IMG/VR virus record: IMGVR_UViG_2563366998_000011
Location: 1 to 53,254 of that record
Strand: one strand, 5' to 3'
From: a virus
Taxonomy: Duplodnaviria; Heunggongvirae; Uroviricota; Caudoviricetes
DNA: 53,254 bases
The position numbers and the translations under genes were made by a program. Each line of letters begins with the position of its first letter. Position 1 is the first letter of the stretch. A model generated the notes under the pieces. The model ran no database searches. It had not been told where the DNA came from and worked only from the letters and a program-made list of their open reading frames with translations. Below are positions 1,720 to 51,180 of the stretch, one piece after another.

Positions 1720-1926
1720 TCACACAATACGCATTGTGTTTCGTAATTCACCGCGCAGCGCGCGCAGTGCATCACGCATTGGTACAAAAAACCGGTTAAA
1801 TTTTACGTGTTTATATTTCCGCATTAGTGGCGGTGTATAAACCATCGCGCCGCAAGAATTGCATGGGAAACGGAAATGTGATTCATCAATGAATGTTTCA
1901 ACTGAATAAAAGATTACACGTCTCAT
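1720..1926 (-). CDS. Hypothetical small Cys-containing protein
   Basis: 68 aa ORF (CNSCG motif), coupled to flanking genes. Confidence 0.4.
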   Translation of the reverse strand: MRRVIFYSVETFIDESHFRFPCNSCGAMVYTPPLMRKYKHVKFNRFFVPMRDALRALRGELRNTMRIV

Positions 1927-2480: not shown

Positions 2481-2559
2481 TGTTTTTAGCCTCAATTTAA
2501 GCGCGAAAACAGCCACCAGAAAGCGGTAAACTTTCCGGTAAGCCGTTTGCTCAAGTTAA

Positions 2560-3981: not shown

Positions 3982-3999
3982 TATGTTATTGCCTCCGGT

Positions 4000-5118
4000 T
4001 TACAAAATGGAATATTCAGGGTAATAAACAAAGCGCCCAATTTCCCCATGATCCGGGCTGTAAATAATCACCGCTGCCAGACGCCGCGACCGCCAGCCGC
4101 CATTAGTTGAATATGCGTCTTTGCCAGCTAATGTGCCGTGGTGCTCAACTATTCCAAGTGATGTTTCAACAACTGATTGATGGTGCAGATGTCCAGTGTG
4201 AGCGTAAACAGCCACAGACCTTCCGAAATCCTCCCGCCAGTCAGCTACGCAAGCAGACAATAAATTTTCCGGCTTTTTGATAGTGTGCCCGTGGTGGTAA
4301 GCAAGGAATGTTTTGCCATACTGTGTGTGGTGGACAATGGCAGGTGACACGTCAACAGTCACGCGCGGCTCATCTTCGTAAAAAGCCGCAAGCGCAGCAC
4401 GTAGCCAGATCATACCTGATTGGTCGTGATTACCGGATAATACCTGGATCTCGACATCCTTATGATTTAGTAACATCTTCCCGACCGCACGCCGGACCGA
4501 CCGGATCGCCACATAAACCAGTTTTGCGTAGCGTGAATCACAATCTAAAACGTGATTACTTGATGGCGTCACTGGTAACAGGCCGTCAGTGTGAAGCACA
4601 TCACCGCCGAGAAGTAAAACAGCTTTTTCAGACATCGGAGCAGCGCCAACAGCGTAGTCAAAGAAGTCATTCAACACGCGCTCAGCGATCCCAGTATCGT
4701 AGCTCTCACCGCATTCAGCTTTATGAGCAAGCGCCCCGATATGCAGATCAAACACCGGATAAAGTGCCAGGCTTTTTTGAAAATCAATTTCAGGCACTGG
4801 CACAGCCTCCGCGCGTGGTATTTCATCAGTGAAAGCGTCGCGGGCCGCTTCCATTAGCTGTTCCATTTCTTCGCGGTCACGGGCTGTTTTAATCCAGCGC
4901 ATGATAACATTGCCGTTCTTATCGACTAGCAACGACTCGCCATTGACGCCAAAACCAGGAGCGCGGCGTGTTGATAATAAACCACGTTTCGCCAGTTTTG
5001 CGCCCAGGCGCTCGACATTGCGTTTTGACATGCCATATTTTTCAGCAATCTGCTTGTACGTTAAACCGTTGTTATATTCAGCGATCAATTGCTCATCGCT
5101 GATTTTTCTTTGCGACAT
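4000..5118 (-). CDS. HTH-domain protein with metallophosphoesterase motifs (possibly replication-associated)
   Basis: 372 aa; N-terminal HTH (LTYKQIAEKYGMSKRNVERL); motifs DLHIG, GGDVLHTDG, SGNHDQ resembling SbcD/Mre11-type metallophosphoesterases; lies between replisome organizer and helicase. Confidence 0.6.
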   Translation of the reverse strand: MSQRKISDEQLIAEYNNGLTYKQIAEKYGMSKRNVERLGAKLAKRGLLSTRRAPGFGVNGESLLVDKNGNVIMRWIKTARDREEMEQLMEAARDAFTDEIPRAEAVPVPEIDFQKSLALYPVFDLHIGALAHKAECGESYDTGIAERVLNDFFDYAVGAAPMSEKAVLLLGGDVLHTDGLLPVTPSSNHVLDCDSRYAKLVYVAIRSVRRAVGKMLLNHKDVEIQVLSGNHDQSGMIWLRAALAAFYEDEPRVTVDVSPAIVHHTQYGKTFLAYHHGHTIKKPENLLSACVADWREDFGRSVAVYAHTGHLHHQSVVETSLGIVEHHGTLAGKDAYSTNGGWRSRRLAAVIIYSPDHGEIGRFVYYPEYSIL

Positions 5119-5152
5119 AATGTTAATTCCTCAGGTTTACATTTTGTATACA

Positions 5153-6208
5153 TCAGGATATAGCACAACGAAAAAACTTGCACCCCAAATAATCCTCAAT
5201 GCGTTTTTGTCTTATCGCATCGCTTTTTGCTTGCCGTTTGTGATGTGATTCATCAATTTCTACAGCAATATTATTCACAAGATCGTAGCCATCAATAAAA
5301 TACTTGTTGCCAGCAACATTAACAGGATATTGCCTTATTAATTTAACTCCTTTTAGTTTTTCGTACATAGTTAATCCAGCATGTTCATAACGCTTCCTAA
5401 TCATATTTTTACAATTATAACTCATTTCTGATAATTTCTCGTCACATTCCCTTTTTATTTCCTCAATTACATTCTTGTCGCTTTTTAATTCAATAAAGTT
5501 TTCTATGTCGTTATAATTACCGCATTCAAAATTATTACTAAGACCTTTATTTTGACCCCATGTATGATACTTTTCCGCTATCTTATCGCTAATATATCTT
5601 TCATATCCATAATTTGTTTTAACTGTAAAATATTCAATATTTAAATCAATGGTAAACTCATCATTATTAAGATGTTCATTTAAAAACGTATCTGGATCTG
5701 CAATATCGCTTGAATGAAACAACCTTACCCATAGTTTTTCTATTGATACTCCGCGAGTAACGAACAACCATTTTTTATACTTTTCAGCATCTTCCTTTGA
5801 CACATACACAGAGCATCGCCCGGGAGTATCACTAGTTTCAACATAGTTGTTACACCATAAAACATAATTATAAGCATAAGGACTATCTTTTCTGGTATTA
5901 TTTGAATATTTATTAAACACATCTTGTAAATCAACTAATCCACAAGATTCAATAACTGGCTTAACCCAATTTTCATTATATTCATAATGTCTATATTTAC
6001 CAGGTGTAACGAATCTAATAAACGTTATAGGTGTGATATACACATCATCACCATCAATAATAAAATCCTTGTATTCCTCAAATCCGTAAAGATCAGAGTA
6101 TTTAACAAATGATTTAAGCCTATCGATTTCAAGTTCAGAAACAAGATTATTAACAGATAGTAATTGCGTGTCCTTACAATTTAGTTTCACATGATAAGTG
6201 GCAATCAT
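5153..6208 (-). CDS. AT-rich moron protein with C-terminal restriction-endonuclease-like (DUF559/Vsr-like) domain
   Basis: ORF 5153..6289; likely start MIATYHV at 6208 with AAGAGG RBS; visibly AT-rich versus flanks; C-terminus YFIDGYDLVNNIAVEIDESHHK...DAIRQKRIEDYLGCKFFR fits the DUF559 endonuclease pattern. Confidence 0.55.
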   Translation of the reverse strand: MIATYHVKLNCKDTQLLSVNNLVSELEIDRLKSFVKYSDLYGFEEYKDFIIDGDDVYITPITFIRFVTPGKYRHYEYNENWVKPVIESCGLVDLQDVFNKYSNNTRKDSPYAYNYVLWCNNYVETSDTPGRCSVYVSKEDAEKYKKWLFVTRGVSIEKLWVRLFHSSDIADPDTFLNEHLNNDEFTIDLNIEYFTVKTNYGYERYISDKIAEKYHTWGQNKGLSNNFECGNYNDIENFIELKSDKNVIEEIKRECDEKLSEMSYNCKNMIRKRYEHAGLTMYEKLKGVKLIRQYPVNVAGNKYFIDGYDLVNNIAVEIDESHHKRQAKSDAIRQKRIEDYLGCKFFRCAIS

Positions 6209-6596: not shown

Positions 6597-7649
6597 TCAA
6601 AGAGCGCCTGCGCGTGTGTCGCGTAGCGTTTTTGGTTTAAGCAGGAAATCAAGTGTCGCTGTGAAGCCATTGCCGAAGTAAAAATCTGAAGCCGTGTTTT
6701 TGAATGTTTCGAAGTAGGCGACAAAGCCGTTAATGCTTTTGTCTTTCAGGTAGTCAGTGAACGCATAGATCTTGCGTTCAAGATCCCGATCCAGTTCGAC
6801 AGGTGGTAACAGGCCGTCAAACGTGCTGTTAAATGCTTCCACCACGTCGGCAGCGTTTGCAGTGGCTGACAGTTTGCGCCATTGTTCAGCATCAGTCAGA
6901 TACCCATCAAATTTAGTTACCCGGCAAATATTGATAGGCTTAGGTGTTCCACCACGGCTACGCCATTGCGTTAAAGCCCACTCAATCACTAATGTGATCT
7001 CATCCTCCGTATACGCTTTACGTGTTTTTGTTTCTGTCAGTAGTTCGATGAATGGCTTCGCATCACGACATTTGCATCCTGCCTTGTCGTTGTAGAAGGC
7101 CAGGCAACGCAACGCCGCTTCGTTTACGCCATCATGATTGACCATTTTTTGTTCATTTTCGACAATACACGAAGTGTATATATCTTTTTCTCTTTCTTCT
7201 TCTACTTCTAATTCTAATTCATGACCCTTTCCTGACCCGGTCATGACCCTATCATGACCTTTTTGTGTTGGATTGATTAACTTTTCTAATTTTAATTGCT
7301 CCTTAGCTGTGTTTATGGCGGCCCTGTACGCGCTTTTAGAAGTCATTGATTGGTCAAGCCTTTTCAATAACTTTAAACAAGTTATGTGGCCTTGAGAACA
7401 TTCAAACAAACCAATTTCGATGAAGTATTTCATCATTTCTTCTATACGTTTTTCAGTCGATCCGACGTTTCGCGCAATGATTCTCGCGTCATGTCGTAGG
7501 TCAAAAGTCAGATTGTGCTGATCTACGTCATAAGTTATTAGTTCGAGGCAATACCAATAAAGCCCGTACCCTTCCAGGCCATAATCTAACAAAACGTTTT
7601 GAAGTTTTTCATCGCGGTTCGCATCGCTGTCATGCTTAAACCACTTCAT
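6597..7649 (-). CDS. Phage replication initiation / replisome organizer protein (DUF4373-like N-terminus)
   Basis: 350 aa; N-terminus MKWFKHDSDANRDEKL...YGLEGYGLYWYCLELI matches the Lin1244/DUF4373 pattern of phage replisome organizers. Confidence 0.65.
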   Translation of the reverse strand: MKWFKHDSDANRDEKLQNVLLDYGLEGYGLYWYCLELITYDVDQHNLTFDLRHDARIIARNVGSTEKRIEEMMKYFIEIGLFECSQGHITCLKLLKRLDQSMTSKSAYRAAINTAKEQLKLEKLINPTQKGHDRVMTGSGKGHELELEVEEEREKDIYTSCIVENEQKMVNHDGVNEAALRCLAFYNDKAGCKCRDAKPFIELLTETKTRKAYTEDEITLVIEWALTQWRSRGGTPKPINICRVTKFDGYLTDAEQWRKLSATANAADVVEAFNSTFDGLLPPVELDRDLERKIYAFTDYLKDKSINGFVAYFETFKNTASDFYFGNGFTATLDFLLKPKTLRDTRAGAL

Positions 7650-21883: not shown

Positions 21884-21997
21884 GGCGTTGGACAACCATA
21901 AATGTGATCTGTATCACAATGTATACGAAATGGCATTGTTTCGACAGTGCCATTTTGTTATATATAAGCCACGGAAAGACGGAGGGGAGGCAAGAAG

Positions 21998-24388: not shown

Positions 24389-24880
24389 ATGATTAGCCAA
24401 TCGCTAAAGAATAAAATTATTGCTGCGGCGGCTGGTGGGGCTATCGCTATTGCGGCTGTGATGGTTAAACCATTGGAAGGCGTGGAATATGATCCTTATC
24501 GTGATGTTGTCGGTGTATGGACTGTTTGCCACGGTCACACCGGAAAGGACATCATGCTTGGTAAGACTTACACGCAATTTGAATGCGATGCTTTGTTGAA
24601 CAAAGATCTACACAAAACCGCAAAAGCGATTGACCCATATATCAAAGTCGAAATATCAGATTTTACCCGCGCAGCACTTTATTCATTCGCCTATAACGTA
24701 GGCGCAACCAACTTCAAAACATCAACCTTATTAAAGCTACTTAATGACGGCAAGAAATCGGAAGCGTGCGCACAGCTTAAACGCTGGGTATACGCTGGCG
24801 GTAAGAAGTGGCAAGGCCTGGTTAACCGCCGTGATATTGAATATGCCGTTTGCGAATGGGGTGAAACATGGACAAGGTGA
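24389..24880 (+). CDS. R: SAR endolysin (lysozyme, phage 21 R type)
   Basis: ORF 24263..24880, ATG at 24389; N-terminal signal-anchor-release segment [15 protein letters not shown]; [33 protein letters not shown] matches phage 21 lysozyme as recalled. Confidence 0.9.
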
Positions 24881-25338
24881 AGACGTTAATCATCGCCGTT
24901 GTTGTTTGCATTATTGCCGGGCTTACCGCCGTAACGTGTTATTACCAGGGTGAGGCGGCAAGGTTACAGGAAGAAGTCACGGTGACGAAAGGCGCACTAA
25001 AAACAGCAAGTAACACTATCCAGCAGATGAAGGAGCGAAACGCCGAACTGTCAAAACTTGATAAGAGGTATCACGATGAGATTAAAGCTATCAGATCTGA
25101 CATTGCCGATCTTCGCGCTGGCATTGATAGCGGTGCTATCAGGTTGCACGTCAACGCCGAGCCAGTGTACGTGCACGACGCCACCGGAACCGCCAGCAGC
25201 ATTAATGGAGCCACCTGTAGACTTACTGCCAGTGCTCAATCAAATTATCTATCCCTCAGAGAACAACTAAAAGAGAAAGACGCGAAGATCACCGGATTAC
25301 AGGACTACATCAAAACGCAGTGCATACGCAAAGAATAA
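24868..25338 (+). CDS. Rz: Rz-like inner-membrane spanin
   Basis: 156 aa; N-terminal TM helix then coiled-coil periplasmic domain; follows endolysin. Confidence 0.8.
25076..25270 (+). CDS. Rz1: Rz1-like outer-membrane lipoprotein spanin embedded in Rz
   Basis: ORF 25058..25270 in alternate frame inside Rz; start MRLKLSDL at 25076 with AAGAGG; lipobox LSGC; Pro-rich. Confidence 0.75.
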   Translation: MRLKLSDLTLPIFALALIAVLSGCTSTPSQCTCTTPPEPPAALMEPPVDLLPVLNQIIYPSENN

Positions 25339-28975: not shown

Positions 28976-30382
28976 ATGTATTCAGGAGTAAACATTATGC
29001 CATCCAATTTAGAATTGGCGGTTAATGCTGCCTTGTCACAACGCAAGGCGGCCTTTGCCCGCTATGCAGCCGCTAACCCATTCTCAATGGGTATTGATGC
29101 AAAACGTGATGCTGCGTGGAGTGAATACGGATTCAAAGAAGAAATCACCTATGACGATTTATACAAACTGTATCGTCGCGGTGGTATCGCTCACGGTGCT
29201 ATTGAGAAGATCATCACTACGTGCTGGCGCACCAGGCCAACGCTGATCGAAGGTACGGAAGACGAGAAAGCAGAAAAGGAAACGCCGTGGGAAAGAGAAA
29301 TCAAAAAACAATTTGATAATCGTTTCTGGCGCGTCATAGCTGAATGTGATCGCCGCCGCCTCATTGGTCGTTATGCTGGCCTGTTGATTCATGTCAGAGA
29401 TAACCAGCCGTGGGATCAGCCAGTAACAAAAGGCGTAGGCATTGCCAAATTTACTCCAGTATGGGCTGGTGCTCTGACGCCGAAGGACTTCGAAGAAAAC
29501 CCGGATAAAGAAAACTATGGCCTGCCTACATGGTGGGAATACAAGGAGCGCATCAATAGTAAGACCATAGCAAGAAAGATACATCCAGACCGGATATTCA
29601 TCTTCGGTGACTATTCTGATGATGCTATCGCTTTCCTTGAGCCGTCCTATAACGCTTTTGTATCGCTGGAGAAAGTGGAAGGAGGTAGCGGTGAATCCTT
29701 TCTAAAAAACGCCGCACGTCAACTGGCTATCTCGTTCGATAAAGAGATTGATTTCCGTTCCCTGGCTGCAACATACGGTTGCGACGTTACAGAGCTACGC
29801 GAAAAATTCAATGAAGCGGCAGAGGATATAAACAAAGGGAATGATGTGATGATGGCATTACAGGGAGCCACCGTTAGCCCGCTGGTCACTGCCGTAGCAG
29901 ATCCGTCCGCAACCTATGACGTCAACCTGCAAACCGCCGCCGCTGGTATCGACATTCCAACGCGTATCCTGGTTGGGAATCAGCAGGGCGAACGCGCATC
30001 AACTGAAGACCTCCGCTACTTCAATAATCGCTGTATGACCCGCCGTGAGGAAATAGGAGGCGAGCTTGAGGAACTATTCCGCAAGATGGCAGATCTCCGC
30101 CTTATCAGTATGCCAGTCGATGTATCAGTGTTATGGGATGACCTTAACGCCATGACAAAAGCCGAACTACTGGAAGCGGCACACAAGATGGCGCAAATCA
30201 ATCAGGCATGTCTCGCTACTGGTGAGGAAATATTTAGCGGCGATGAGATCCGCGAAGCTGCCGGATATGAAGGGCCAACGCAGGAAGTAGAAGTGGAAGA
30301 CGAGGACGATAAAGATGAAGATGAAGATGAAAGTAAAGAGAATAATCAAAAAGATTCCGCCGTCCGCGATAATGCCATCTAA
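28976..30382 (+). CDS. Portal protein (putative)
   Basis: 468 aa; position between terminase and MuF-like head protein; acidic C-terminal tail. Confidence 0.6.
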   Translation: MYSGVNIMPSNLELAVNAALSQRKAAFARYAAANPFSMGIDAKRDAAWSEYGFKEEITYDDLYKLYRRGGIAHGAIEKIITTCWRTRPTLIEGTEDEKAEKETPWEREIKKQFDNRFWRVIAECDRRRLIGRYAGLLIHVRDNQPWDQPVTKGVGIAKFTPVWAGALTPKDFEENPDKENYGLPTWWEYKERINSKTIARKIHPDRIFIFGDYSDDAIAFLEPSYNAFVSLEKVEGGSGESFLKNAARQLAISFDKEIDFRSLAATYGCDVTELREKFNEAAEDINKGNDVMMALQGATVSPLVTAVADPSATYDVNLQTAAAGIDIPTRILVGNQQGERASTEDLRYFNNRCMTRREEIGGELEELFRKMADLRLISMPVDVSVLWDDLNAMTKAELLEAAHKMAQINQACLATGEEIFSGDEIREAAGYEGPTQEVEVEDEDDKDEDEDESKENNQKDSAVRDNAI

Positions 30383-31268
30383 CACCGAAGACCCGACCAT
30401 GACAGGTAAGTTGCGGTCTGGAGCTATTAAGCGTTTTAAATCCTGCCTGAAGAAAATAGCCGATCCATATATCGCCATACTGGACAAAATACAATATAGC
30501 CTGGCTGTTAATAAGAAATATACCTTCCAGATTTACATGGATGAATTGCACGACATGCTGGAGGACGCCAGCGACATGATTGATGATATATTCGAGCTAA
30601 CCGACCCGGAAAGTTTTTGGTTCTGGCAGGAATACGTGAAGGTCGCGTATCTGCGAGGCACGGCACAGGAATACGCCAACCTTGCTAACCAGTCTGTCAC
30701 GTACTCAAGCGTTTATCCCGATGTATCTGCCGTACTATCAAGCACAACCTACCGCACGCGCCTTGCCCTGGTCCGTACCCGTGTATTTGAGGAAATGCGC
30801 GGGCTGACAGCACAGATCAAAAAGGATATGGCCCGCCGACTAACTGAAGGCATGGCCCGTGGCTTAAACCCACTTGAAATAGCGCGCACATTGCAGCAGG
30901 AAACGCAATTGCCGCTATACAGGTGCAAACGTATTGCTCGAACTGAAATATGCACAGCGTTGCGCACAGCGCGTATGGATGAGGCAGAAGCAGCGTCAGA
31001 AGAGCTTAATTTGCGCACCATGCAAATGCATATTTCGGCATTATCACCGACTACCAGGTTATCACACGCACAGCGGCACGGGAAAACATACACCATAGAA
31101 GAGCAGCGCGAATGGTGGAGCAGATCCCCTAATTCAATTAACTGCAAATGTAGCACGATTACCGTATTAGTTGACGAAGACGGTAATATATTAAACAAAC
31201 GAATATTAGATCGGGCGCAAGAAAACTATAAGGTTGCGCACGCTAAATATGGCGAAGATTGGGAGTAA
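30372..31268 (+). CDS. Minor head / head morphogenesis protein (Mu F / SPP1 gp7-like)
   Basis: ORF 30315..31268, likely ATG at 30372 overlapping portal stop; position and size typical of MuF-like proteins. Confidence 0.55.
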   Translation: MPSNTEDPTMTGKLRSGAIKRFKSCLKKIADPYIAILDKIQYSLAVNKKYTFQIYMDELHDMLEDASDMIDDIFELTDPESFWFWQEYVKVAYLRGTAQEYANLANQSVTYSSVYPDVSAVLSSTTYRTRLALVRTRVFEEMRGLTAQIKKDMARRLTEGMARGLNPLEIARTLQQETQLPLYRCKRIARTEICTALRTARMDEAEAASEELNLRTMQMHISALSPTTRLSHAQRHGKTYTIEEQREWWSRSPNSINCKCSTITVLVDEDGNILNKRILDRAQENYKVAHAKYGEDWE

Positions 31269-36475: not shown

Positions 36476-37183
36476 GTGAATACTATGATCCATGTTCGTA
36501 CAGGACAATTTGCTGCCGTGGTGAACGGTAAGCGCTATGAGTTTAATCCTTGCTTTGCTGCGATGGCTAAAATCGGCAACGATAGTGAGCTTGTCGAATA
36601 TTTCGCACTTATCCACGGCGGCAAATATCCATCACGATTGCCAGCAGATCCAGACCTACGCAATCGCATTCTGGCGCGGTGTTATGGTGAAATAGTTCAG
36701 ACATCAATGCACATCCTGAAATGTTGCTCAGACGACGAAATAGGCCCGTTATTGGGCGAATGCTGGTTTACTCCTTCGGGTAAGTTAAAGTTAAAGCCCG
36801 GATTAATGCCGATCGAGGATATCATCACGCTTGCGCAGCACTGCATGTACCACGGTCTTATTGGTGATGGCCCGGAAGAAGAGTCCGGGGAAATTCCGGA
36901 AGGGGAATATAAGCCGACTTTTAACGTCCTTGAATTCGTCTATTCTGCCGTTGCTCACCTGGGCTTGTCAGAATCGGAAGCATGGAATATGACAATGACC
37001 GGATATAGGGCCGCTGTACGCGCTAAAACGCCGCCAGACGAAAGAAACGAGAAAAGCAAGCCAAACATTCACATAAATAAACGTGCTTATGACGAGCAAA
37101 TGGAGGCCGCTAAAAAGGCACTAGAAAGAATGAAAAATCGTGAGCAAGAAAAGCCCGGTAGATCCGGGCGTTTTGCTAATTGA
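36476..37183 (+). CDS. Tail assembly chaperone (putative)
   Basis: 235 aa; position upstream of tape measure. Confidence 0.45.
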   Translation: MNTMIHVRTGQFAAVVNGKRYEFNPCFAAMAKIGNDSELVEYFALIHGGKYPSRLPADPDLRNRILARCYGEIVQTSMHILKCCSDDEIGPLLGECWFTPSGKLKLKPGLMPIEDIITLAQHCMYHGLIGDGPEEESGEIPEGEYKPTFNVLEFVYSAVAHLGLSESEAWNMTMTGYRAAVRAKTPPDERNEKSKPNIHINKRAYDEQMEAAKKALERMKNREQEKPGRSGRFAN

Positions 37184-37550
37184 AATCTTTAATTGCTGTA
37201 CCTGGTGAACTGTGTGTGATTGTATTGTATACAGACTTTGCCTTACTGCGATCTTTCCATTCTTTTAGGATGCAGTTATCAAACTTTGCGATAACCCTTG
37301 AAGGGGATAATTCTTCAACATCCATGTAAGTAAATCCTATCGTGCTGGTTACTGAATACCATACGTGATAACTATAATTACCGTCATGCTCGATTCTTTG
37401 TGGTTCCCCCATTATTTTATTCACTTGCTCACAAGTCATTCCAACTTGCAAATTTTTATCAGCTAACTTAACGAAATCAGTTGATCTTGCGCACCCTGTA
37501 AGAGCTAAAGCCATAACACCAATGAGAACCGCTTTGATTATTTTTTTCAT
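37176..37550 (-). CDS. Lipoprotein (antisense moron in tail cluster)
   Basis: 124 aa; signal peptide and lipobox LTGC; opposite strand to tail genes. Confidence 0.7.
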   Translation of the reverse strand: MKKIIKAVLIGVMALALTGCARSTDFVKLADKNLQVGMTCEQVNKIMGEPQRIEHDGNYSYHVWYSVTSTIGFTYMDVEELSPSRVIAKFDNCILKEWKDRSKAKSVYNTITHSSPGTAIKDFN

Positions 37551-37560
37551 GATTTACCCC

Positions 37561-38220
37561 TTAATTCCAGTTGCAAGCGTTTTTCACTTTGTCGATGTGG
37601 TTATAAAGACCATCAATGTTAAACACTGCTTTCTCAATGTCGCCAGCTTCCGGCACTACTTCAATGATGAATTGTTTTTCGTTAACCAGTTTTTTAATCA
37701 TTGGGATGGCTTTTTTGCCGTCCCATAATCCAAGAGCTTTATAATTAGTTGACCGCCACCACTCAGTAGCTACAGCTTTGTGAACGCCGATCCGGTAGTT
37801 AATATAAGTAGTGTCCCCGGCGTCAGTTACATGGTGTGACCATGCTACGAACATTTTTGTTTTATTACCCTGGCAAGCGATTGTTAATACCGGTTTATTC
37901 TTATCCTGTGCCTTCAGTGTCGGGAAAGCATCAAGACTTCCGCTGAATTGTTCTGCTTTCACAAAAAGGAATACGTTTTTTGCGTCCTGCATATCATCTT
38001 TTCTTTCAACTACAAGCCACTGTTTACCAGCATTTTCTTTTTCTAACTGTGCATCGTATGCGGCTTGTTTTGCTTGTTGTTCTGCAAGCCATTTAGCATT
38101 TTTCTCTGCTAATGCTTGTTGCTCTTGATTGGTCACTATAGGCGCTTTTTCATTATCCTCATTGCAACCAACCAGACCCAATACCGCCGCAATCATTGCC
38201 ACTTTTGCTAACCGTTTCAT
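37561..38220 (-). CDS. Lipoprotein (antisense moron in tail cluster)
   Basis: 219 aa; signal peptide and lipobox LVGC. Confidence 0.7.
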   Translation of the reverse strand: MKRLAKVAMIAAVLGLVGCNEDNEKAPIVTNQEQQALAEKNAKWLAEQQAKQAAYDAQLEKENAGKQWLVVERKDDMQDAKNVFLFVKAEQFSGSLDAFPTLKAQDKNKPVLTIACQGNKTKMFVAWSHHVTDAGDTTYINYRIGVHKAVATEWWRSTNYKALGLWDGKKAIPMIKKLVNEKQFIIEVVPEAGDIEKAVFNIDGLYNHIDKVKNACNWN

Positions 38221-38347
38221 AACCCACCACGCTAACTTGATTTACTGACCATTCCCTTTAGCTTCCTTATACAAAATGGAGTCGTTGAAGTAAAGCCATT
38301 TTGTATAAAATAGATACACAGATCACATTTTTGCATGAGGTTAAATC

Positions 38348-40690
38348 ATGGCTACCAGTGTAGGTACAATTTATTACGAAGTTGATGCGAAAACTGGTCA
38401 ACTTCTCGTTGCACAACGACAGGCAGACCAGGCCTTTGATCGTATAGAGCGCGGCGCAAAACAGGCTGACCGCCAGGTAAACACCCTGAAAACATCCATC
38501 AAGGCACTGACCAGGGTTATCCATCTGCTAATTGCTGCGGAGGCTGTGCGCCAATTTATGGATATGGCGGAGCAAGCAAAAATGCTTCGCGTAAAAATCA
38601 AAATGCTTACGGGCGATGCGGAGTCCGCCGGACGGGTTTTCGACGGCCTGAAAGCAATATCCAGGGAGACGGGGCAGAGCCTGAAAGATACTGGCGAATT
38701 ATGGCAAGGCCTGGCTATCTCACTAAAAAACACCTCCGCTACGGAAGGGCAATTGCTTAACCTGGTTGGCACTATTCAGAAAATGGGTGCATTAGGCGGC
38801 GCGTCAGCGGAACAGATGTCTAACTCAATGCGTCAATTCCGTCAGTCTATCGACGGCGGTGTTCTTCGTGCCGAAGAATTTAACAGCCTGCTTGAAAATA
38901 CGCCGACCATCGTACAAACAATGGCCCGCCATATGGGATTATCAATGGGCCAGTTCCGCGCCGAAATGCTGGACGGCAAGATCACGGCTGAAAGGATGGT
39001 TAACGCAATACAGGCGGCTACGCAGGAAACAAACGATAAGTTTGCTCAGTTGCCGCGCACATCCGGCATGGCTATCAATGAGCTTAAAGTAGAAATTATG
39101 GGCCTTGTTGAGCAGTTGGATGATCTTTTTGGCGTGTCAGATGGCGTTGTTTCAGCTATCGACTTGATCACGAAAGGCGTTAAAGGGCTTGGCGATGGCG
39201 CTAAATTCGCTAAAACCTGCTTCGACACACTCAAAACGGCTGGTAGCGAATTTATCGACATGTTTGATGATGTGGCTGTTAAGGCTGGAGAGGTGGCAGA
39301 GAAGATCATCGCAATGGTGACGCCAATCAAGGCGCTAATGGATGGCTATAAATGGATGAAGGAGGTAGTAGGAGAGCAAACCGACGAATATAACAGCAAC
39401 TACGAGAAGAAATACGGGAAGACCGTTGGCAAGGTCATGCAACTACAGGATGATCTGACCGCAGCAATCCAGGCTACAGAAGAAGCAAGGAAAAATGAAC
39501 AGAATGCTGCCAATGACGGAGCGATTACCGGATTCGACAAGCCAGTAGACAAGCCGAAAAAACAGAAAAAAGAGAAGAAATCGGAAGCTGATCGGCTTGG
39601 TGACAAAGGTATAAGCGTTTCTGATCAGTACAACAAAGACGCCGCCGCCATGCGCAAAGCGTTGGAGAACGGCAAGGCCATTGATGCTGCATTTGCCCAG
39701 GGTAAAATCACGCTCCTTGAGTACCGCGCCGCGCAAAAAGGGATCGGCAAGGAACTGAAAGAAGAATTAGCACAAATTCCGGTAGATGAATTGCGTGATA
39801 AATGGTCACAAATAGTAAGCCCGATGGATCAGCTAAAAGGCGAAGTTGACCCCATCCAGCAGGCGCAAAATGAATGGGCCATCCGTAAGCAAATGCTTAT
39901 AGACCTGGGCGCTACTGAAGCGCAACAGAAACAGGAATTGTTAGCCTATGAGCAACAGATCCGCGATCTGAAATGGGAACAATGGCAGGCGCAAAGCGAC
40001 ACAAACGGCCTTATCGGTGATTGTGTTAATGGCCTTAAAGGCGGAATGAGTAATGCGCTTGTTGGCCTGTTAAACGGCACTCAATCATTGAGTGATGTTT
40101 TTGCTAACTTAGGAAGCAATATACTCGGCAATATCGGTAACAGACTCTCAGACATAGCTGCAAACTGGATAGCAGATCAGATCATGATGGAGACACAAAG
40201 CAAGGCCACGCAAACAAGTACAACAGCAAGCGCGGTAGCAGCTCAGGGAAGCATTGCTGCGGCGGCGGCCCCAGCAGCGGCGGCAACTGCGGCGTCAACT
40301 GGCGGTAGCTGGGCGGCGGCTGGTTCGGCGGCGCTCACTGCGATCATGTCGCTGGCTACGTCAATTTTCGGCGGCGGTCGCTTTAATGGTGGTAGCGTCA
40401 TTGGTGGTAATATGTACCGCGTAGGGGAACACAACAGGCCGGAGCTATTCCAGACATCTAACGGCAATCAATATATGATCCCTGGCGAGAACGGCAGAGT
40501 TATTCCGGGCCGTGATATTGGCGGCGGTGGCGGTATTAGTATGCCTGTCAGTATCAGCATTCAGACCACGAACGGATTCAGCGACGAAGACAGCCGCAGA
40601 CTTGAATTAACAATGGAACGTGTAGCCATGAAAATGATAACAAGGGAATCTCAAAGACCAGGCGGAATGTTGCAACCTCGCCGCAAATAA
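38348..40690 (+). CDS. H: Tail tape measure protein (lambda H-like)
   Basis: 780 aa; alpha-helical with Gly/Ala-rich C-terminal region; precedes M-L-K-I-J. Confidence 0.85.
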   Translation: MATSVGTIYYEVDAKTGQLLVAQRQADQAFDRIERGAKQADRQVNTLKTSIKALTRVIHLLIAAEAVRQFMDMAEQAKMLRVKIKMLTGDAESAGRVFDGLKAISRETGQSLKDTGELWQGLAISLKNTSATEGQLLNLVGTIQKMGALGGASAEQMSNSMRQFRQSIDGGVLRAEEFNSLLENTPTIVQTMARHMGLSMGQFRAEMLDGKITAERMVNAIQAATQETNDKFAQLPRTSGMAINELKVEIMGLVEQLDDLFGVSDGVVSAIDLITKGVKGLGDGAKFAKTCFDTLKTAGSEFIDMFDDVAVKAGEVAEKIIAMVTPIKALMDGYKWMKEVVGEQTDEYNSNYEKKYGKTVGKVMQLQDDLTAAIQATEEARKNEQNAANDGAITGFDKPVDKPKKQKKEKKSEADRLGDKGISVSDQYNKDAAAMRKALENGKAIDAAFAQGKITLLEYRAAQKGIGKELKEELAQIPVDELRDKWSQIVSPMDQLKGEVDPIQQAQNEWAIRKQMLIDLGATEAQQKQELLAYEQQIRDLKWEQWQAQSDTNGLIGDCVNGLKGGMSNALVGLLNGTQSLSDVFANLGSNILGNIGNRLSDIAANWIADQIMMETQSKATQTSTTASAVAAQGSIAAAAAPAAAATAASTGGSWAAAGSAALTAIMSLATSIFGGGRFNGGSVIGGNMYRVGEHNRPELFQTSNGNQYMIPGENGRVIPGRDIGGGGGISMPVSISIQTTNGFSDEDSRRLELTMERVAMKMITRESQRPGGMLQPRRK

Positions 40691-41400
40691 ACTAAACCCC
40701 GGTGCAATGCCGGGGTTATTTTTGTGCACAGAAAACCCCCAGCTAGGCTGGGGGTTCCGGAAAGCTTTCAGCTTTAAGCCAGTTATTAAAACCCCTTTTG
40801 ATTTGTTAAAACACCTTGCGGTCTGGCAACTGCAAGTGTCAAACAAGAAATCAAAAGGGGGTCCCAATGGGGAACGAAAAGAGCTTAGCGCACACCCGAT
40901 GGAACTGTAAATATCACATAGTTTTTGCGCCAAAATACCGAAGACAGGTGTTCTACAGAGAGAAGCGTAGAGCAATAGGCAGTATTTTGAGAAAGCTGTG
41001 TGAGTGGAAAAGTGTACGGATTCTGGAAGCTGAATGCTGTGCAGATCATATCCATATGCTTGTGGAGATCCCGCCCAAAATGAGCGTATCCGGGTTTATG
41101 GGATATCTGAAAGGGAAAAGCAGTCTGATGCTTTACGAGCAGTTTGGTGATTTGAAATTCAAATACAGGAACAGGGAGTTCTGGTGCAGAGGGTACTACG
41201 TCGATACAGTGGGTAAGAACACGGCGAAGATACAGGATTACATAAAGCACCAGCTTGAAGAGGATAAAATGGGAGAGCAGTTATCGATTCCCTATCCGGG
41301 CAGCCCGTTTACGGGCCGTAAGTAACGAAGTTGGATGCAAATGTCAGATCGTGTGCGCCTGTTAGGGCGCGGCTGGTAAGAGAGCCTTATAGGCGCATTT
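40691..41400 (+). mobile_element. IS200 insertion sequence (boundaries approximate)
   Basis: contains IS200-type tnpA; left-end hairpins at 40697-40715 and 40733-40756; about 0.7 kb; inserted between tape measure and gene M. Confidence 0.65.
40867..41325 (+). CDS. tnpA: IS200/IS605-family transposase TnpA
   Basis: ORF 40816..41325, likely start MGNEKSLAHTRWNCKYHIVF; HxH motif (HIHMLVEIPP) and catalytic Tyr region (GYYVDTVG); matches Salmonella IS200 TnpA as recalled. Confidence 0.9.
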   Translation: MGNEKSLAHTRWNCKYHIVFAPKYRRQVFYREKRRAIGSILRKLCEWKSVRILEAECCADHIHMLVEIPPKMSVSGFMGYLKGKSSLMLYEQFGDLKFKYRNREFWCRGYYVDTVGKNTAKIQDYIKHQLEEDKMGEQLSIPYPGSPFTGRK

Positions 41401-41488: not shown

Positions 41489-41743
41489 TCACTTATGAGT
41501 GCCTTTCACGCCACATAACTTGTTATAGGCATGGTGCTCAACAATTAACCAAACCTTCAAATCTTCGCTAAACAGCCTCCAATCAAGATTGATATCCATT
41601 TTGTATCCGTAACCGTCGCGTAACTTTTTGGGGTAAACTTCTTTTCTCAGAAAGGCTTTAAGTAATTCCTTACCTTTCTTGATGATCCGGTCCTGTGCGT
41701 TTTTCTGTGCTTTCAGATTTCTGTCAATCGCTACCAGTTTCAT
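41489..41743 (-). CDS. Hypothetical protein, possible RelE/YafQ-like toxin
   Basis: 84 aa; basic; C-terminal ...VKGTHK loosely resembles the YafQ/RelE C-terminus; second gene of a two-gene antisense operon. Confidence 0.3.
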   Translation of the reverse strand: MKLVAIDRNLKAQKNAQDRIIKKGKELLKAFLRKEVYPKKLRDGYGYKMDINLDWRLFSEDLKVWLIVEHHAYNKLCGVKGTHK

Positions 41744-41760
41744 AACTCACCCCATCATCC

Positions 41761-41916
41761 TTAGTTAAGTGCCTTCAGGAAGAAGTCCCGGTATTCATCT
41801 TCTTTCGCATTCATCATGAATTGACCGTATTTGAATGCGTCGTCGAAACCCTTAACGATTGCTATTTCCACTTGTTCGAATGCGTTATTTAGCATTACTA
41901 CTACATAGCGTTTCAT
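41761..41916 (-). CDS. Small hypothetical protein (51 aa), possible antitoxin partner
   Basis: MKRYVVVMLNNAFEQ...; strong GAAGGAGG RBS; 18 nt upstream of the 84-aa gene. Confidence 0.35.
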   Translation of the reverse strand: MKRYVVVMLNNAFEQVEIAIVKGFDDAFKYGQFMMNAKEDEYRDFFLKALN

Positions 41917-42790: not shown

Positions 42791-43039
42791 CTATAAGTTA
42801 TCACGCAGATAATTAACGCCCTTATCAGTGACGAATGAATGGTTAACCTGGTTTTCATCCGTCATGATGATGAATAACTTTTCATGTAGGTATTTCGCTT
42901 TCGGGTACAGCGTTAAACAGACCTGGTACAGTATCCCGCGCTCAATCAGCAAATCAATAAATTCGTGTTCATGATAACCGATGAGGCGGGCGGCCTGTTT
43001 CAACGTGTACACATAATCACCGTGATTGCGCCGCCCCAT
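42791..43039 (-). CDS. Hypothetical protein (possible HTH), antisense moron
   Basis: 82 aa ORF on opposite strand between M and L. Confidence 0.4.
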   Translation of the reverse strand: MGRRNHGDYVYTLKQAARLIGYHEHEFIDLLIERGILYQVCLTLYPKAKYLHEKLFIIMTDENQVNHSFVTDKGVNYLRDNL

Positions 43040-43048
43040 GTTGCCGCC

Positions 43049-43396
43049 TTATTTATCGAATGCTGAAAGGTTATCGATACAGAAATCTTTCGCCGCTTTT
43101 TCGTATTCGCGTTTTGCTTCTGGATCGTCAGCCGGGAAACCTTTTGCGTGTATTTCACCAGGGCAAGACTGGTCCATAGAATCTGCATAATAAGCAGTGA
43201 AGCTACCATTAATATCTTTCGGGTTCATATCTTCCACCTCATCAACTATATGTACCGGATTAGCAGCATATTTCACTGGATGGCCTAAACTACATTCAAG
43301 AATCCTGCCTTCTTCCAGGGCTACTTCTTCGCTATCAAATAATCCGAAACACTCCTTGCTACCACTTAACCACACATCAAGACTGTATTTTTTCAT
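43049..43396 (-). CDS. Hypothetical protein, antisense moron
   Basis: ORF 43049..43498; likely start MKKYSLDV at 43396 with GAGG RBS. Confidence 0.4.
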   Translation of the reverse strand: MKKYSLDVWLSGSKECFGLFDSEEVALEEGRILECSLGHPVKYAANPVHIVDEVEDMNPKDINGSFTAYYADSMDQSCPGEIHAKGFPADDPEAKREYEKAAKDFCIDNLSAFDK

Positions 43397-43565
43397 TTTT
43401 GTTAGCCTCATATTTGACAGGTTCGATCTGGTATCCCAAAAGGCGGTCATCCTCAGCAAGTAAAAGCGCGTCAACCAATGCTTCACCCTCGTCGTCATAC
43501 AGGGCGATAACCTTTTCCCTACCGTCTGTCATGAATACCGTCAACTTCCATAGCTTTTCAGTCAT
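43377..43565 (-). CDS. Hypothetical protein (62 aa), antisense moron
   Basis: ORF 43377..43685; likely start MTEKLWK at 43565 with GGAGGTG RBS. Confidence 0.4.
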   Translation of the reverse strand: MTEKLWKLTVFMTDGREKVIALYDDEGEALVDALLLAEDDRLLGYQIEPVKYEANKNEKIQS

Positions 43566-43694
43566 AACGCACCTCCGCGCCATTTTGTTAACTATGCTTC
43601 CGTTTGAGTAAAATATACATATTGTAAAAACCGCGATCAATCCATTTTGGTATGATTTAGCGTGACGCAGATCACAGAATGACAAGGTGAGAAA

Positions 43695-48600: not shown

Positions 48601-50698
48601 GAATGTGATGGACACAAACCTTAAAGGTCAGATCTCTAATGTGCAACGCGCAGTAGCTGACGAGGCCAGCGCCCGCGCTGAAGCTATTAACGGTGTAAAT
48701 GCCTCAATAAGCAATCTTGACAAGAAAACTGACGCCAGCGTAAACCGTCTTGATCAGGCAATTGCAGACGAAACAAGTGCGCGTACTCAGGCTATCAGCG
48801 ACGTGAACGCAAGTATCTCAACACTTGACAAGAAAACTGACGCCAGCGTTAAGCGCCTCGATAATGCAATATCAGATGAAACGCAGGCAAGAAGCGACGC
48901 AATAACAGTGGTTAAAGCTGATTTAACAACGCTTGAAAATAACACAAATGCCAGTGTTAGCCGTCTTGATCAAGCTATCGCTGATGAATCAAGCGCACGT
49001 GCTCAGGCGATATCAGGTATCAGCGCGACGCTTGGCGGCGTTAAAAGTGAGGTTGATAAAAACAGCGACGAGATAGATCAGGCGAAAGCAAGTCTGCAAA
49101 ACGCATCTCTGGCGCTTATTAATAACTCAATGGCGCAAAGCAAGATGAGCACTGTTATTGAGGCGAAATACAGGAAAGGACAAACAAAAACAAAAGCGGA
49201 AATAGCAAGGGTAGACACAGCAATCGCAGATGAGGCGAGCGCACGCGCAGAAGCTATTAGCAACGTTAACGCCAGCGTCAGTAGTCTTGAAAGCAAAACC
49301 GACGCGAGCGTTTCCCGTCTTGATAAAGCAATCGCAGATGAGGCGAGCGCACGCGCAGAAGCTATTAGCAACGTTAACGCCAGCGTCAGTAGTCTTGAAA
49401 GCAAAACCGACGCGAGCGTTTCCCGTCTTGATAAAGCAATCGCAGATGAGGCGAGCGCACGCGCAGAAGCTATTAGCGGGGTTAATGCGTCAATTTCCAC
49501 GCTCGATAGCAAGGTGACAAGCAACGTAACCAGGATGGATAAAGCGATCGCAGATGAGAAGAATGCACGCACTGACGCAATCAGCAGCCTTAACTCATCG
49601 CTTACCAGTACGATTAATTCGAAAGTATCCGAAGTGTCAACTGCACTTTCTACGCATGAAACATCAAGCGCGGAAAAATTTGGCCAGATCTCGGCATCTT
49701 TCGACGATGTAAACTCAAGCATCACGGAATGGTCACAGGCTATGGCAACGGCAGACGAGGCATTGTCAACCAGAATCGACCAGTTGAAAGTAACTATTAA
49801 CGGAAACACAACGGCGATAGAAACGACATCAAAAGCACTGACTGACTTCAAAGGTAACGTTGATGCGTCATATTCAATTAAGATTGCCACTGATAAAAAC
49901 GGTATGAAATACGCTACAGGAATGTCGCTCGGCCTTACTGGTAGCGGGACTAACGTTCAATCGCAGTGTATTTTCCTCGTTGACCGTTTCGTGCTTATGA
50001 CTGCGGCAGGTGGCTCCTATCAGACCCCGTTCTATGTTACTAACGGTGCTTGCTACATCCGTGATGCGTGGATCAGAGACGCATCAATCACTACCGCGAA
50101 GATTGCGCAGCAAATTCAGTCAACCAACTATAAAGCTGGTTCGGCTGGCTGGATGCTAAATAAAAACGGCAATGCGGAGTTCAACAACGTCACTGTACGC
50201 GGTACGGTGTACGCAACATCTGGTAAATTCACTGGTGAGATTCAGGCCACAAGCGGGAAGTTTAAAGGTACAGTAGAGGCAAAGTCATTTGTCGGTGACG
50301 TTGCTAACATGGGGGTTGGTCCAGATCGAGTGCTTGGGCATAACGGAAGTTATAGCGCAACCATCACATATAAAGACAGCACGGATAATGCATTGACGAA
50401 ATCAGTTATGCTTATGGCGACTATTTCATTAATGTCTGGTGAATATAGATCCACTTATAACGTAACGTTTAGTTGCGGAGATAAAAACAAAACAATTTCA
50501 TATTACGTGCCTTATGGTGGATGCACATTAACAGTGCAATGCGCTTTTTCTGGTTTAAAAGCATCAGATATTATCGGGAAAATATATTGTCCTCAAACAT
50601 CATCATCTGAAGGATACGCATATTGTACCGCGTTGTATTCTCCAACAATGATAGTAGCAAGAGGCACCGGATCATTTAGAACATCAACGACAGCATAA
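45620..50698 (+). CDS. J: Host specificity / central tail fiber protein J with expanded repetitive central region
   Basis: 1692 aa; N-terminal 900 aa and C-terminal domain colinear with lambda J (AISEGPI, FGCTSRGQAHRAG, AVQH.P.K.A.VDNGA); about 460 aa of 36-aa repeats inserted (lambda J is 1132 aa). Confidence 0.9.
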   Translation: MSSGGGKAKTPTLLNDNLYHKQFYRVLDILSEGPIYGPVNQKAPLNDVMLNDTPVTDANGNTSIPGISIAWRNGTADQSPINGFNAIESTVIVNAKVTHDTPIIRTVSDPNVTRVRLNLGVDALVQSDEKGNQYNTSVMLMVDVKPSSSSTWSLIKDIHIGPGKQSGEYLEAHIIKAPDEKPFDIRVRRITPDSNGDLLRNDTRWSSYSEIIDDNLSYPHTAVAGAVIDHDQYTDTPTRTYHLRGLIVDVPDNYNPETRTYSGLWLGGFKKAYTNNPAWLFRYLVKNERFGLARHAGYIDVDDGALYVLSQYCDQLVDDGYGGLEPRMTLNAYITEQMSARDLLDNIAGMFRGIALWDGQRLTVMIDAPQDPIATITNANVVDGAFTRSSIARAECYNAVIVSWTDPENGWEQSKEYVADDKLIARDGYNETTLEAFGCTSRGQAHRAGKWLIETAKREPSKFTFKMARDAIHFTPGDIIEILDNNRAGARLGGRIVANNGRAITVDKVDSEYIAAGDTISLLDSDGKFKKHQIIGVNGNIITLAAAPAWIRNGTVFAVSTNAAKPVLCRITSVAETENNSVYTIEAAQHDPHKQAVVDNGAIFEINNDTLNHFRVPNIENLKVLNVGSETVQCRATWETQTTTRRLTFEIRVYNAEGAVVKSYETTNYSYDFYGIDAGNYSLGIRGRNDTGMKGAESIVDLVIGAPAAPVGVNWVPGVFQATVYPISRTTLTTDTSYEFYYSGETQITDPASITTKAQYTGRGHQWTFGGMNTGHTYYVYVRARNAFGVSDFVEASGKPTENFDEITDYVTKDVMNSKQFKEMVGDIKDLGDRTDLIESATNDLKTATDNLKTATDNLTNITDDLRTETDNLTIETGSIKADTDTLKKETEDLYKKVKENADDIGQHESRIDSLEVSSEKVGSELAQAKASLQNASLALINNSLAQTNTRVTLTAQYKKGRTETKAEIDRIDNVIAEEKKATAESLETITAEMNVMDTNLKGQISNVQRAVADEASARAEAINGVNASISNLDKKTDASVNRLDQAIADETSARTQAISDVNASISTLDKKTDASVKRLDNAISDETQARSDAITVVKADLTTLENNTNASVSRLDQAIADESSARAQAISGISATLGGVKSEVDKNSDEIDQAKASLQNASLALINNSMAQSKMSTVIEAKYRKGQTKTKAEIARVDTAIADEASARAEAISNVNASVSSLESKTDASVSRLDKAIADEASARAEAISNVNASVSSLESKTDASVSRLDKAIADEASARAEAISGVNASISTLDSKVTSNVTRMDKAIADEKNARTDAISSLNSSLTSTINSKVSEVSTALSTHETSSAEKFGQISASFDDVNSSITEWSQAMATADEALSTRIDQLKVTINGNTTAIETTSKALTDFKGNVDASYSIKIATDKNGMKYATGMSLGLTGSGTNVQSQCIFLVDRFVLMTAAGGSYQTPFYVTNGACYIRDAWIRDASITTAKIAQQIQSTNYKAGSAGWMLNKNGNAEFNNVTVRGTVYATSGKFTGEIQATSGKFKGTVEAKSFVGDVANMGVGPDRVLGHNGSYSATITYKDSTDNALTKSVMLMATISLMSGEYRSTYNVTFSCGDKNKTISYYVPYGGCTLTVQCAFSGLKASDIIGKIYCPQTSSSEGYAYCTALYSPTMIVARGTGSFRTSTTA
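49220..49477 (+). repeat. Perfect 108-bp tandem duplication (2 exact copies plus partial third) inside J
   Basis: 49220-49327 and 49328-49435 identical; encodes 36-aa unit ...AIADEASARAEAISNVNASVSSLESKTDASVSRLDK; degenerate copies upstream 48640-49030. Confidence 0.9.
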
Positions 50699-50727
50699 AA
50701 AAACGGGGCATAAGCCCCGTTTTTTTA
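50697..50727. terminator. Bidirectional intrinsic terminator after J
   Basis: AAAAAAACGGGGC-ATAA-GCCCCGTTTTTTT. Confidence 0.75.
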
Positions 50728-50737
50728 TGCATTGTTT

Positions 50738-50983
50738 TTATTTTTTACACCCATCATTTACACCAGAAAAATGGATAGGTAAATTACATTCACTGTCAAT
50801 AATTTTACCTTGTAGTTGTTTTTCTTTCCATGAGTCAGTATTGAAATAACTCGAACGTTGGTTATCAAGGCCAGTATCACCATATTGAGCAGTGCCAGCA
50901 TCACTCTTATCTGTCGAATTTACAGAAGCAAAAGCACCAAAAGACAGAGCTGATAAGATGCAAGCAACAATTAGTTTTTTCAT
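50738..50983 (-). CDS. Small secreted protein (lom-position antisense moron)
   Basis: ORF 50738..51040; likely start MKKLIVACILSALSFGAFA at 50983 with AAGGTGA RBS; signal peptide; between J and side tail fiber. Confidence 0.5.
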   Translation of the reverse strand: MKKLIVACILSALSFGAFASVNSTDKSDAGTAQYGDTGLDNQRSSYFNTDSWKEKQLQGKIIDSECNLPIHFSGVNDGCKK

Positions 50984-51180
50984 TGTATTCACCTTACTGT
51001 TTGTTTTACTGTCATTTGTTGTTCGTGATGATCCACCCATCCGATGAGCAAATCACCGCAGAAGCTATCATTTCGTATGTTGATATAGATCAAAAAATAC
51101 ATTATGTATAAGCCCAAAGTGTAACACAGATTACAAAATGGTAGAATTGTTTAGTTAATTAACAAAACGGAGTTATTGCG

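Follow-up and report, generated by a model that had tools for sequence, protein, structure and literature searches.

An Escherichia coli prophage of the mEp021-like (mEpimmI) group was found to encode two predicted lipoproteins on the minus strand of its tail gene region, in the interval bounded by a DUF6246 gene and the tape measure protein gene. The sequence is the IMG/VR virus record IMGVR_UViG_2563366998_000011 (Caudoviricetes; positions 1 to 53,254), analyzed over its whole length of 53,254 nucleotides (nt) and here called the window. Together, the two genes (hereafter, the cassette) very probably constitute a moron by anatomy, i.e., an exchangeable and self-contained two-gene operon: they are replaced in relatives at the same backbone position, deviate in base composition, and have their own predicted terminator. 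We favor a reading, at a probability of roughly 0.5, in which this is a moron operon whose lipoproteins act in the envelope of the lysogen, protectively. The open reading frames (ORFs) of the cassette and its flanks are as follows.

36485-37183, plus strand: DUF6246 gene, left flank (Pfam DUF6246, E 2e-54; phrog_791; RefSeq annotation of an identical prophage).
37176-37550, minus strand: gene for a predicted outer-membrane lipoprotein of 124 amino acids (aa), second in the operon (N-terminus MKKIIKAVLIGVMALALTGC; lipobox LTGC, Cys20, Ala at +2).
37561-38220, minus strand: gene for a 219-aa predicted lipoprotein, first in the antisense operon (N-terminus MKRLAKVAMIAAVLGLVGC; lipobox LVGC, Cys19, Asn at +2).
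38348-40690, plus strand: tape measure protein gene, right flank (Pfam TMP_3, E 1e-49; phrog_1538).

Both minus-strand ORFs are present just as stated in a preliminary description of this DNA, which had read them as antisense lipoprotein genes with lipoboxes LTGC and LVGC, and the lipobox check agreed. Each signal peptide has a basic n-region, a hydrophobic core of ~12 residues, and then the lipobox, of which the Gly-Cys is invariant or nearly so across all homologs found in both families. The description had also noted an 8-nt overlap with the end of the neighboring plus-strand gene, and the 124-aa ORF indeed has 8 nt in common with the DUF6246 ORF, which ends at 37183. It called the latter gene the tail chaperone, which is right as to position (between the tube and tape measure genes, as for a tail assembly chaperone) but not as to identity (DUF6246/phrog_791), so that the label is positional only. 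No G/GT-type frameshift ORF, alternative-frame ORF, or slippery heptamer was found at the cassette/DUF6246 locus, and a frameshift (G/GT-type) product overlapping the cassette was rejected on these grounds. The two genes probably form one operon, because the 219-aa stop and the 124-aa start are only 10 nt apart and the Shine-Dalgarno sequence of the 124-aa gene (AAGGGG) overlaps the 219-aa stop; judging from this arrangement, they are probably also translationally coupled. The GC content of the cassette is 0.37-0.42 vs. 0.47-0.52 in the flanks, with GC and AT skew inverted, and ratios of nonsynonymous to synonymous divergence (dN/dS) of 0.18-0.26 and 0.07 indicate purifying selection on both genes.

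Six sequenced relatives and several prophages carry differing cargo between the DUF6246 and tape measure genes.

mEp013: a homolog of the 124-aa protein (82% identical) and a 59-aa membrane ORF.
mEp021, mEp010, and MagusPhagus: a secreted protein of ~138 aa.
mEp044: two small membrane ORFs.
One E. coli prophage: a VasI-like gene on its own.
Strain M1/5: a VasI-like gene and an unrelated 106-aa partner.

Nearly all of this alternative cargo is envelope-targeted, the exception being the 106-aa partner in M1/5, in which neither a signal peptide nor a membrane segment is evident, and the slot looks like a hotspot for envelope-targeted cargo. Given these variants across relatives, the two lipoprotein genes are independent modules. 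Synonymous divergence (dS) between the window and STEC308, GF66.2, or M1/5 was 0.01-0.13 in the cassette and ~0.4 in the adjacent tape measure gene; cassette dS is far below tape measure dS in the same genome pairs, which points to recent transfer of the cassette between diverged backbones. The cassette is rare; of 5426 complete E. coli genomes, 14 records from 12 distinct assemblies have all of it, and the carriers include human, food, and Shiga toxin-producing E. coli (STEC) isolates. A prophage that is 100% identical over the cassette lies beside a truncated abgT gene in its genome; abgT is a known insertion site of mEpimmI phages.

The predicted regulatory elements lie at the two ends of the cassette.

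37153-37169: predicted terminator, a GC-rich hairpin (GCCCGG-N5-CCGGGC) with a minus-strand T-run, separated by 7 nt from the stop of the 124-aa gene.
38249-38347: backbone block that holds the promoter, palindrome, and CRP-like site and forms the right-hand boundary of the exchangeable cargo.
38266-38294, minus strand: predicted sigma-70 promoter (-35 TTTACT, 38294-38289; 17-nt spacer; -10 TATAAG, 38271-38266).
38267-38308: palindrome; its left arm overlaps the predicted -10, and its right arm, next to the -35, contains the 10-mer TACAAAATGG.
38312-38327, minus strand: CRP-like site TGTGATCTGTGTATCT, of which the left half and the spacer match the CRP consensus.

On the minus strand, the block reads TGTGATCTGTGTATCT-ATTTTA-TACAAAATGG-C-TTTACT-17 nt-TATAAG, which places the predicted transcription start at ~38258, ~38 nt ahead of the ATG at 38220. 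The center of the predicted CRP-like site would lie ~60-62 nt upstream of this start, a spacing that corresponds to class I geometry. Its GATCACA is kept in 6/6 relatives, and the layout TTTACT-17-TATAAG is kept in STEC308, the P0010 phage, and mEp021-type relatives. Between the backbone promoter, which it immediately follows, and the cargo, a conserved 29-aa antisense-strand ORF (MKNVNYRPNEHERYADFIEEMLKSLKNKN) was read in STEC308 (2623-2882 of the stretch examined) and in the aligned backbone of mEp021, mEp010, mEp044, and MagusPhagus; neither the window nor mEp013 has it, and the small opposite-strand ORFs in GenBank at this site are probably spurious.

The palindrome is exact (TTATACAAAATGG, 38267-38279; CCATTTTGTATAA, 38296-38308; 13-nt arms and 16-nt loop). 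The window contains just two perfect inverted repeats of ≥13 nt (loop ≤40 nt), this palindrome among them, vs. 0.06 expected from first-order Markov simulation. The existence and 16-nt spacing of this motif pair had been described correctly, with coordinates (38266-38310) that were off by 1-2 nt, but its assignment to the lipoprotein genes was not borne out. In alignments, 6/6 sequenced relatives conserve the region between ~38249 and the tape measure start, cargo notwithstanding, and in a relative with a VasI-like gene in another slot, the palindrome is absent while the gene's own 5' untranslated region and ribosome-binding site are kept. Hence, the palindrome is a feature of the backbone, common to relatives with any cargo, and not of the cargo itself. 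The other perfect repeat (50693-50730) extends from the last codons of the J gene to just past the J stop, and both J and the convergent antisense ORF probably use it as a terminator. As an intrinsic terminator, the palindrome at 38267-38308 was rejected (AT-rich stem, 16-nt loop, no T-run after it on either strand). The hairpin at 37153-37169, found by a terminator scan, falls within the 3'-terminal part of the DUF6246 gene and looks like a terminator in either direction (fold z-scores, -4.4 for minus and -5.3 for plus); in mEp013, mEp021, and mEp010, the corresponding site bears an annotated minus-strand terminator.

The promoter elements recur elsewhere in the phage. With ≤1 mismatch, TACAAAATGG occurs 24 times in the window vs. 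6.2 ± 2.5 expected (e.g., at 4001, 8133, 8976, 16609, 41987, 42058, 43580, and 51132; many copies with a G/T-T-A/T prefix), and TGTRATCTRYR occurs five times vs. 0.38 expected. Antisense islands of the tail region also follow the tape measure, M-like, and J genes, and TACAAAATGG is present at every junction of an antisense island with the next tail gene. The full module (in order, CRP-like site, TAC(A/C)AAAATGG, -35, and -10) is also found ahead of the antisense island at the L gene, and further copies are listed with it.

43661-43676: L-gene island module, with a nearly perfect CRP site (TGTGATCTGCGTCACG).
51120-51135: reduced module of the antisense ORF after J, with a CRP-like dyad (TGTAATCTGTGTTACA) and a degenerate motif only.
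M-gene island: reduced module with motif, -35, and -10, lacking the CRP-like site.
21899-21965, plus strand: paralogous module with a perfect CRP consensus (TGTGATCTGTATCACA, 21903-21918), followed by the second palindrome GTATACGAAATGG-N16-CCATTTTGTTATA (21921-21962).

The last of these is intergenic, in the early/middle region, and a small plus-strand gene starts shortly after it, at 21999. A similar CRP-like/TACAAAATG module (site TGTGATCTATGTTGCA and motif TTATACAAAATG; no clear -35 was read) is found upstream of mEp021 gp81, which encodes the exclusion lipoprotein Lpp021. Because the promoter module is shared with this proven exclusion gene, expression of the cassette from the prophage is somewhat favored, and it could reasonably, and possibly, be CRP-dependent. 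Repetition of the module suggests that the antisense islands of mEpimmI phages are regulated together, possibly by cAMP-CRP. TACAAAATGG was also considered as a CI operator and rejected: it is probably not a repressor operator, since the immunity region has other repeats. These comprise three 11-bp-spaced repeats at 7219-7259, of the TCATGACC(N)...GGTCATGA type and unrelated to TACAAAATGG, which are candidate repressor operators.

The 219-aa protein matches the Pfam VasI family (PF11319) over residues 55-218 with 58.1 bits (gathering threshold, 26.5). Against the TagO/VasI equivalog model TIGR03360, it scores 47.4 bits with a cutoff of 124.2, and the RefSeq name "TagO" therefore overstates its identity. 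In common with TagO/VasI proteins (VC_A0118, EvfG; PF11319/TIGR03360), it has a C-terminal domain of ~160 residues that is above the Pfam threshold, a conserved ACNW motif, and a predicted periplasmic location. It differs from them in falling below the equivalog cutoff and in being encoded in a prophage tail operon, not in a type VI secretion system (T6SS) cluster. Its layout comprises a linker, an Ala/Gln/Lys-rich helix (~residues 31-63), and the β-rich VasI/TagO module (55-218), in which two Cys residues, C116 and C216, are invariant. An AlphaFold2 (AF2) model (mean predicted local distance difference test score [pLDDT], 70.8) likewise has a disordered linker, a helix of ~33 residues, and a β-rich domain, and its best structural match is IalB, an invasion-associated protein. 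In an exhaustive profile search, 6 of 2070 VasI family representatives had E ≤1e-30 (hits without annotation), so the clade is small and isolated; a second homolog search with the family alignment yielded nothing beyond the same ~12 clusters.

VasI genes were also found in other, unrelated temperate phages, and the encoded proteins all carry signal peptides. In Brucella phage BiPBO1, the gene is directly downstream of, and co-oriented with, a CI-like repressor gene. In Labrenzia phage vB_LagS-V1, it is the lone opposite-strand gene by the repressor genes of the immunity region, and in P2-like phages, it lies between ogr and int with a zinc-ribbon membrane partner. The gene of Pasteurella phage Pmp14 lies in an accessory island after the tail chaperone, beside a GHKL-ATPase/PD-(D/E)XK nuclease gene. 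This island (1497-5540 of the stretch examined) encodes three secreted or membrane proteins, the VasI-domain protein, and a 652-aa defense-like GHKL-ATPase and PD-(D/E)XK nuclease protein. By their locations, phage VasI genes appear to hold positions typical of lysogen-expressed genes. Where the other phage VasI proteins have N-terminal RLxCYD-type repeats, a lipobox and helical stalk take their place in the 219-aa protein. We regard the cassette as a well-formed but ordinary moron, mildly unusual in that a VasI/TagO-domain protein has been recruited repeatedly by temperate phages. A literature search returned no report of a function for phage-encoded TagO/VasI.

The 124-aa protein belongs to phrog_18614, and its fold is predicted to be BamE/OsmE/BLIP-like. 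Profile scores were below the family cutoffs for BamE/SmpA_OmlA (PF04355; 18.9 bits vs. 23.2) and OsmE (NF008423; 17.8 vs. 65), as was a match to DUF7738, and the protein differs from BamE/OsmE/BLIP (SmpA_OmlA) proteins by an extra C-terminal tail of ~25 residues. Its AF2 model (pLDDT 75) resembles several small α-β fold proteins; the fold is generic, and housekeeping lipoproteins score equally. Homologs were found only in E. coli/Shigella records and in metagenome or read-assembly contigs, with phage or prophage as the context wherever this was examined. For sorting, the E. coli +2 rule holds that Ala or Asn at +2 predicts localization to the outer membrane. Both lipoproteins should accordingly reach the outer membrane, a prediction that is not firm for the 219-aa protein.

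The closest positional precedent is HK97 gene 15, an archetypal moron in the slot between the chaperone and tape measure genes, which is expressed from the prophage and whose product blocks DNA entry in a tail-dependent manner (PMC3594210). Like gene 15, the cassette is an accessory unit between the chaperone-position and tape measure genes with a composition unlike that of its flanks, and the site of action in both cases is the cell envelope of the lysogen (predicted for the cassette products). However, HK97 gp15 is a small YebO-like inner-membrane protein that is not a lipoprotein and is unrelated in sequence, whereas the cassette has two genes in antisense orientation; exclusion has been demonstrated for gp15 and is a candidate function of the cassette. 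Within the mEpimmI group, Lpp021 (mEp021 gp81) excludes mEp021 and mEp515 experimentally and targets OmpA-using phages, and Lpp010 excludes LamB users, lambda included (PMC11893012). The cassette resembles Cor, Llp, Lpp021, and Lpp010 in encoding prophage lipoproteins in the tail gene region, the latter two in the same phage group. Lpp021 differs in being a 72-aa, Cys-rich protein encoded after the J gene, with no sequence similarity to the cassette proteins, and, unlike the Cor/Llp/Lpp021 type, the cassette is not linked to tail-tip type. Ltp of Streptococcus phage TP-J34 is another prophage lipoprotein, which has reportedly been proposed to block DNA entry via the tape measure protein; it differs from the cassette products in its Gram-positive host, unrelated fold, and location in the lysogeny module instead of the tail operon.

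On the reading favored here, transcription would start at ~38258 from a sigma-70-type promoter supplied by the backbone, bracketed by the palindrome arms and with the CRP-like site near -61, and would proceed leftward through the 219-aa and then the 124-aa gene to end at the hairpin at 37153-37169. Both products would be exported, lipid-anchored, and periplasmic, at the outer membrane if the +2 rule applies. The 219-aa product would present a VasI/IalB-fold domain on a helical stalk of ~30 residues, and the 124-aa product would be a small module of the BamE/OsmE/BLIP fold, which often binds other envelope proteins. The leading guess for the protection of the lysogen is superinfection exclusion after receptor recognition, in which the lipoproteins might interfere with penetration of the periplasm by the tail tip or tape measure, as for HK97 gp15 or Ltp. 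Anti-phage exclusion as the role of the cassette is put forward only tentatively, at somewhat less than even odds. If the products do prove to be exclusion or protection factors, they would add two new folds to envelope-level prophage defenses, one VasI/IalB-like on a stalk and one BamE/BLIP-like.

Several observations weigh against this reading. The promoter was read by eye, and a consensus scanner, which requires T as the last base of the -10, did not list TATAAG, for which reason the promoter is given here as a predicted one. The CRP-like site has a single good half (5/5 in the left, a poor match in the right). Among close homologs of the 219-aa protein, the +2 residue is N, R, D (then E), G, or E, so that its membrane localization is uncertain; these variants predict retention at the inner membrane for some homologs and outer-membrane sorting for others. 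A 2026 review of T6SS accessory factors lists the function of TagO/VasI as unknown, even within T6SS loci (PMC13584744). The exclusion lipoprotein of mEpimmI phages is normally encoded after the J gene and not in the tape measure slot, and neither cassette lipoprotein resembles any protein with a demonstrated exclusion function. BLASTP against Lpp021 gave no alignment or E 5.8 for the two proteins, and the PADLOC defense models matched neither the lipoproteins, the alternative cargoes, nor the other phage VasI proteins. A PDB sequence search with both lipoproteins returned nothing at E ≤10, and a BFVD fold search returned uncharacterized proteins only. The preliminary description had cited Cor, Llp, and Bor as precedents; no such family was found in either protein by Pfam at E ≤1, and their likenesses are instead to VasI/TagO and to BamE/OsmE/BLIP-like folds. 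What stands of its view of the genes as lysogenic-conversion candidates is the anatomy (variable slot, AT-rich, antisense, promoter-like element, hairpin, and dN/dS of 0.07-0.26), together with the proven exclusion lipoproteins of the mEpimmI group and the HK97 gene 15 precedent.

First among the alternatives by likelihood, albeit improbable, is masking of the Cor/Llp type, the main idea of that description, in which one or both lipoproteins would bind the outer-membrane receptor that this phage's tail tip uses, so that related phages could no longer adsorb or be triggered. Lipoproteins are used in this way by mEpimmI phages (Lpp021 against OmpA users and Lpp010 against LamB users [PMC11893012]), both cassette proteins are predicted outer-membrane lipoproteins, and the product of the post-J slot in the window has no canonical lipobox, so that a mask might be encoded elsewhere. 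Besides the lack of similarity to Lpp021 and of Cor/Llp/Bor matches, the cassette proteins are two to three times larger and have unrelated folds. Independent assortment of the cassette and the C-terminus of J also speaks against own-receptor masking: at least three other tail-tip C-termini are found together with the full cassette (STEC306-308, MLI107, and GF66.2), and the tail-tip type of the window is found with no cassette in GN05505 and with the VasI-like gene alone in M1/5. In mEp013, the 124-aa homolog is accompanied by a type-C Lpp. Masking is less likely than exclusion after receptor recognition. It is also doubtful that the cassette serves host fitness or virulence, as Bor or OsmE/BamE-kind proteins would, through envelope homeostasis, stress, serum resistance, or host interaction and with no anti-phage role. 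The BamE/OsmE-like fold with its weak OsmE and BamE profile matches, the invasion-associated IalB as top structural match of the 219-aa protein, nutritional regulation as suggested by the CRP-like site, and the human, food, and STEC carriers would fit such conversion. However, the BamE and OsmE matches are all under the family cutoffs, the genes are rare (14-15/5426 complete E. coli genomes), and the alternative cargoes of the slot together with the HK97 precedent point to conflict between phages.

A role in competition between bacteria, in which the lipoproteins shield the lysogen from T6SS attack (by orphan-immunity-like action or a block to penetration) or modulate a T6SS of the host, appears unlikely given that the 219-aa protein reaches 47 bits vs. 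the equivalog cutoff of 124, its gene is not in a T6SS locus, the function of TagO is itself unknown, the BamE/OsmE/BLIP fold is generic, and no effector gene is nearby. The remaining alternative concerns the palindrome, which could act mainly on the plus strand as an RNA hairpin or protein site that controls translation or transcription of the tape measure gene, its proximity to the lipoprotein genes being incidental. It is found 40-80 nt ahead of the tape measure start, every relative keeps it together with the tape measure gene whatever the cargo, and the plus-strand RNA fold pairs its arms, with an outer helix that covers the tape measure Shine-Dalgarno sequence (z -2.3). No covariation supports this fold, and the palindrome was rejected as an RNA structure: there are 0 compensatory changes in 27 predicted pairs, mEp013 breaks 4/9 outer pairs, and mEp044, mEp021, and mEp010 have an uncompensated G-to-T change in the left arm. 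In addition, the paralogous copy at 21899-21965 is not beside a tail gene, and single arms recur on the antisense strand in fixed register with -35/-10-like hexamers. Plus-strand control is given a low probability.

More speculatively, and with a small chance of being correct as a whole, phage VasI/TagO (IalB-like) proteins may represent a widespread, uncharacterized class of lysogen envelope factors and the antisense islands of mEpimmI phages a single regulon with a shared CRP-like/TACAAAATGG promoter module. Such VasI-fold factors could stop tail-like puncturing devices, be they the tails of incoming phages or T6SS spikes, from penetrating the periplasm. If VasI proteins do form such a class, this would provide a first functional handle on the TagO/VasI domain. 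The mEpimmI phages are a common group of gut coliphages, in which the slot hotspot and the co-regulation of islands are directly checkable.

Other features of the window include the contents of the further antisense islands, all on the minus strand. The island at 41489-41916 contains a ParE-like toxin-like gene and a 51-aa ORF, that at 42791-43569 a KilAC antirepressor fragment and two ORFs, and that at 50738-51040 a secreted protein of 81-100 aa in the post-J slot, where mEp021 has Lpp021. An IS200/IS605-type TnpA ORF (MGNEKSLAHTRWNCKYHIVFAPKYRRQ...) lies just after the tape measure gene (40816-41325, plus strand); the prophage of NZ_CP030768, otherwise identical, lacks this ~712-bp IS200/IS605-type insertion. 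The RefSeq annotation of NZ_CP030768 is out of line with the left part of the window and was not used there. A spanin role for the two lipoproteins was rejected, since the ORF list, by eye, shows Rz at 24868-25338 and an Rz1-like lipobox ORF (LSGC) embedded in it, at a locus labeled "lysis protein" in RefSeq and directly after the holin and lysozyme genes. At ~29036-30406, between a gene for a 504-aa hypothetical protein and a minor head protein gene, lies a 456-aa gene with the RefSeq label "anti-CBASS protein Acb1 family protein."

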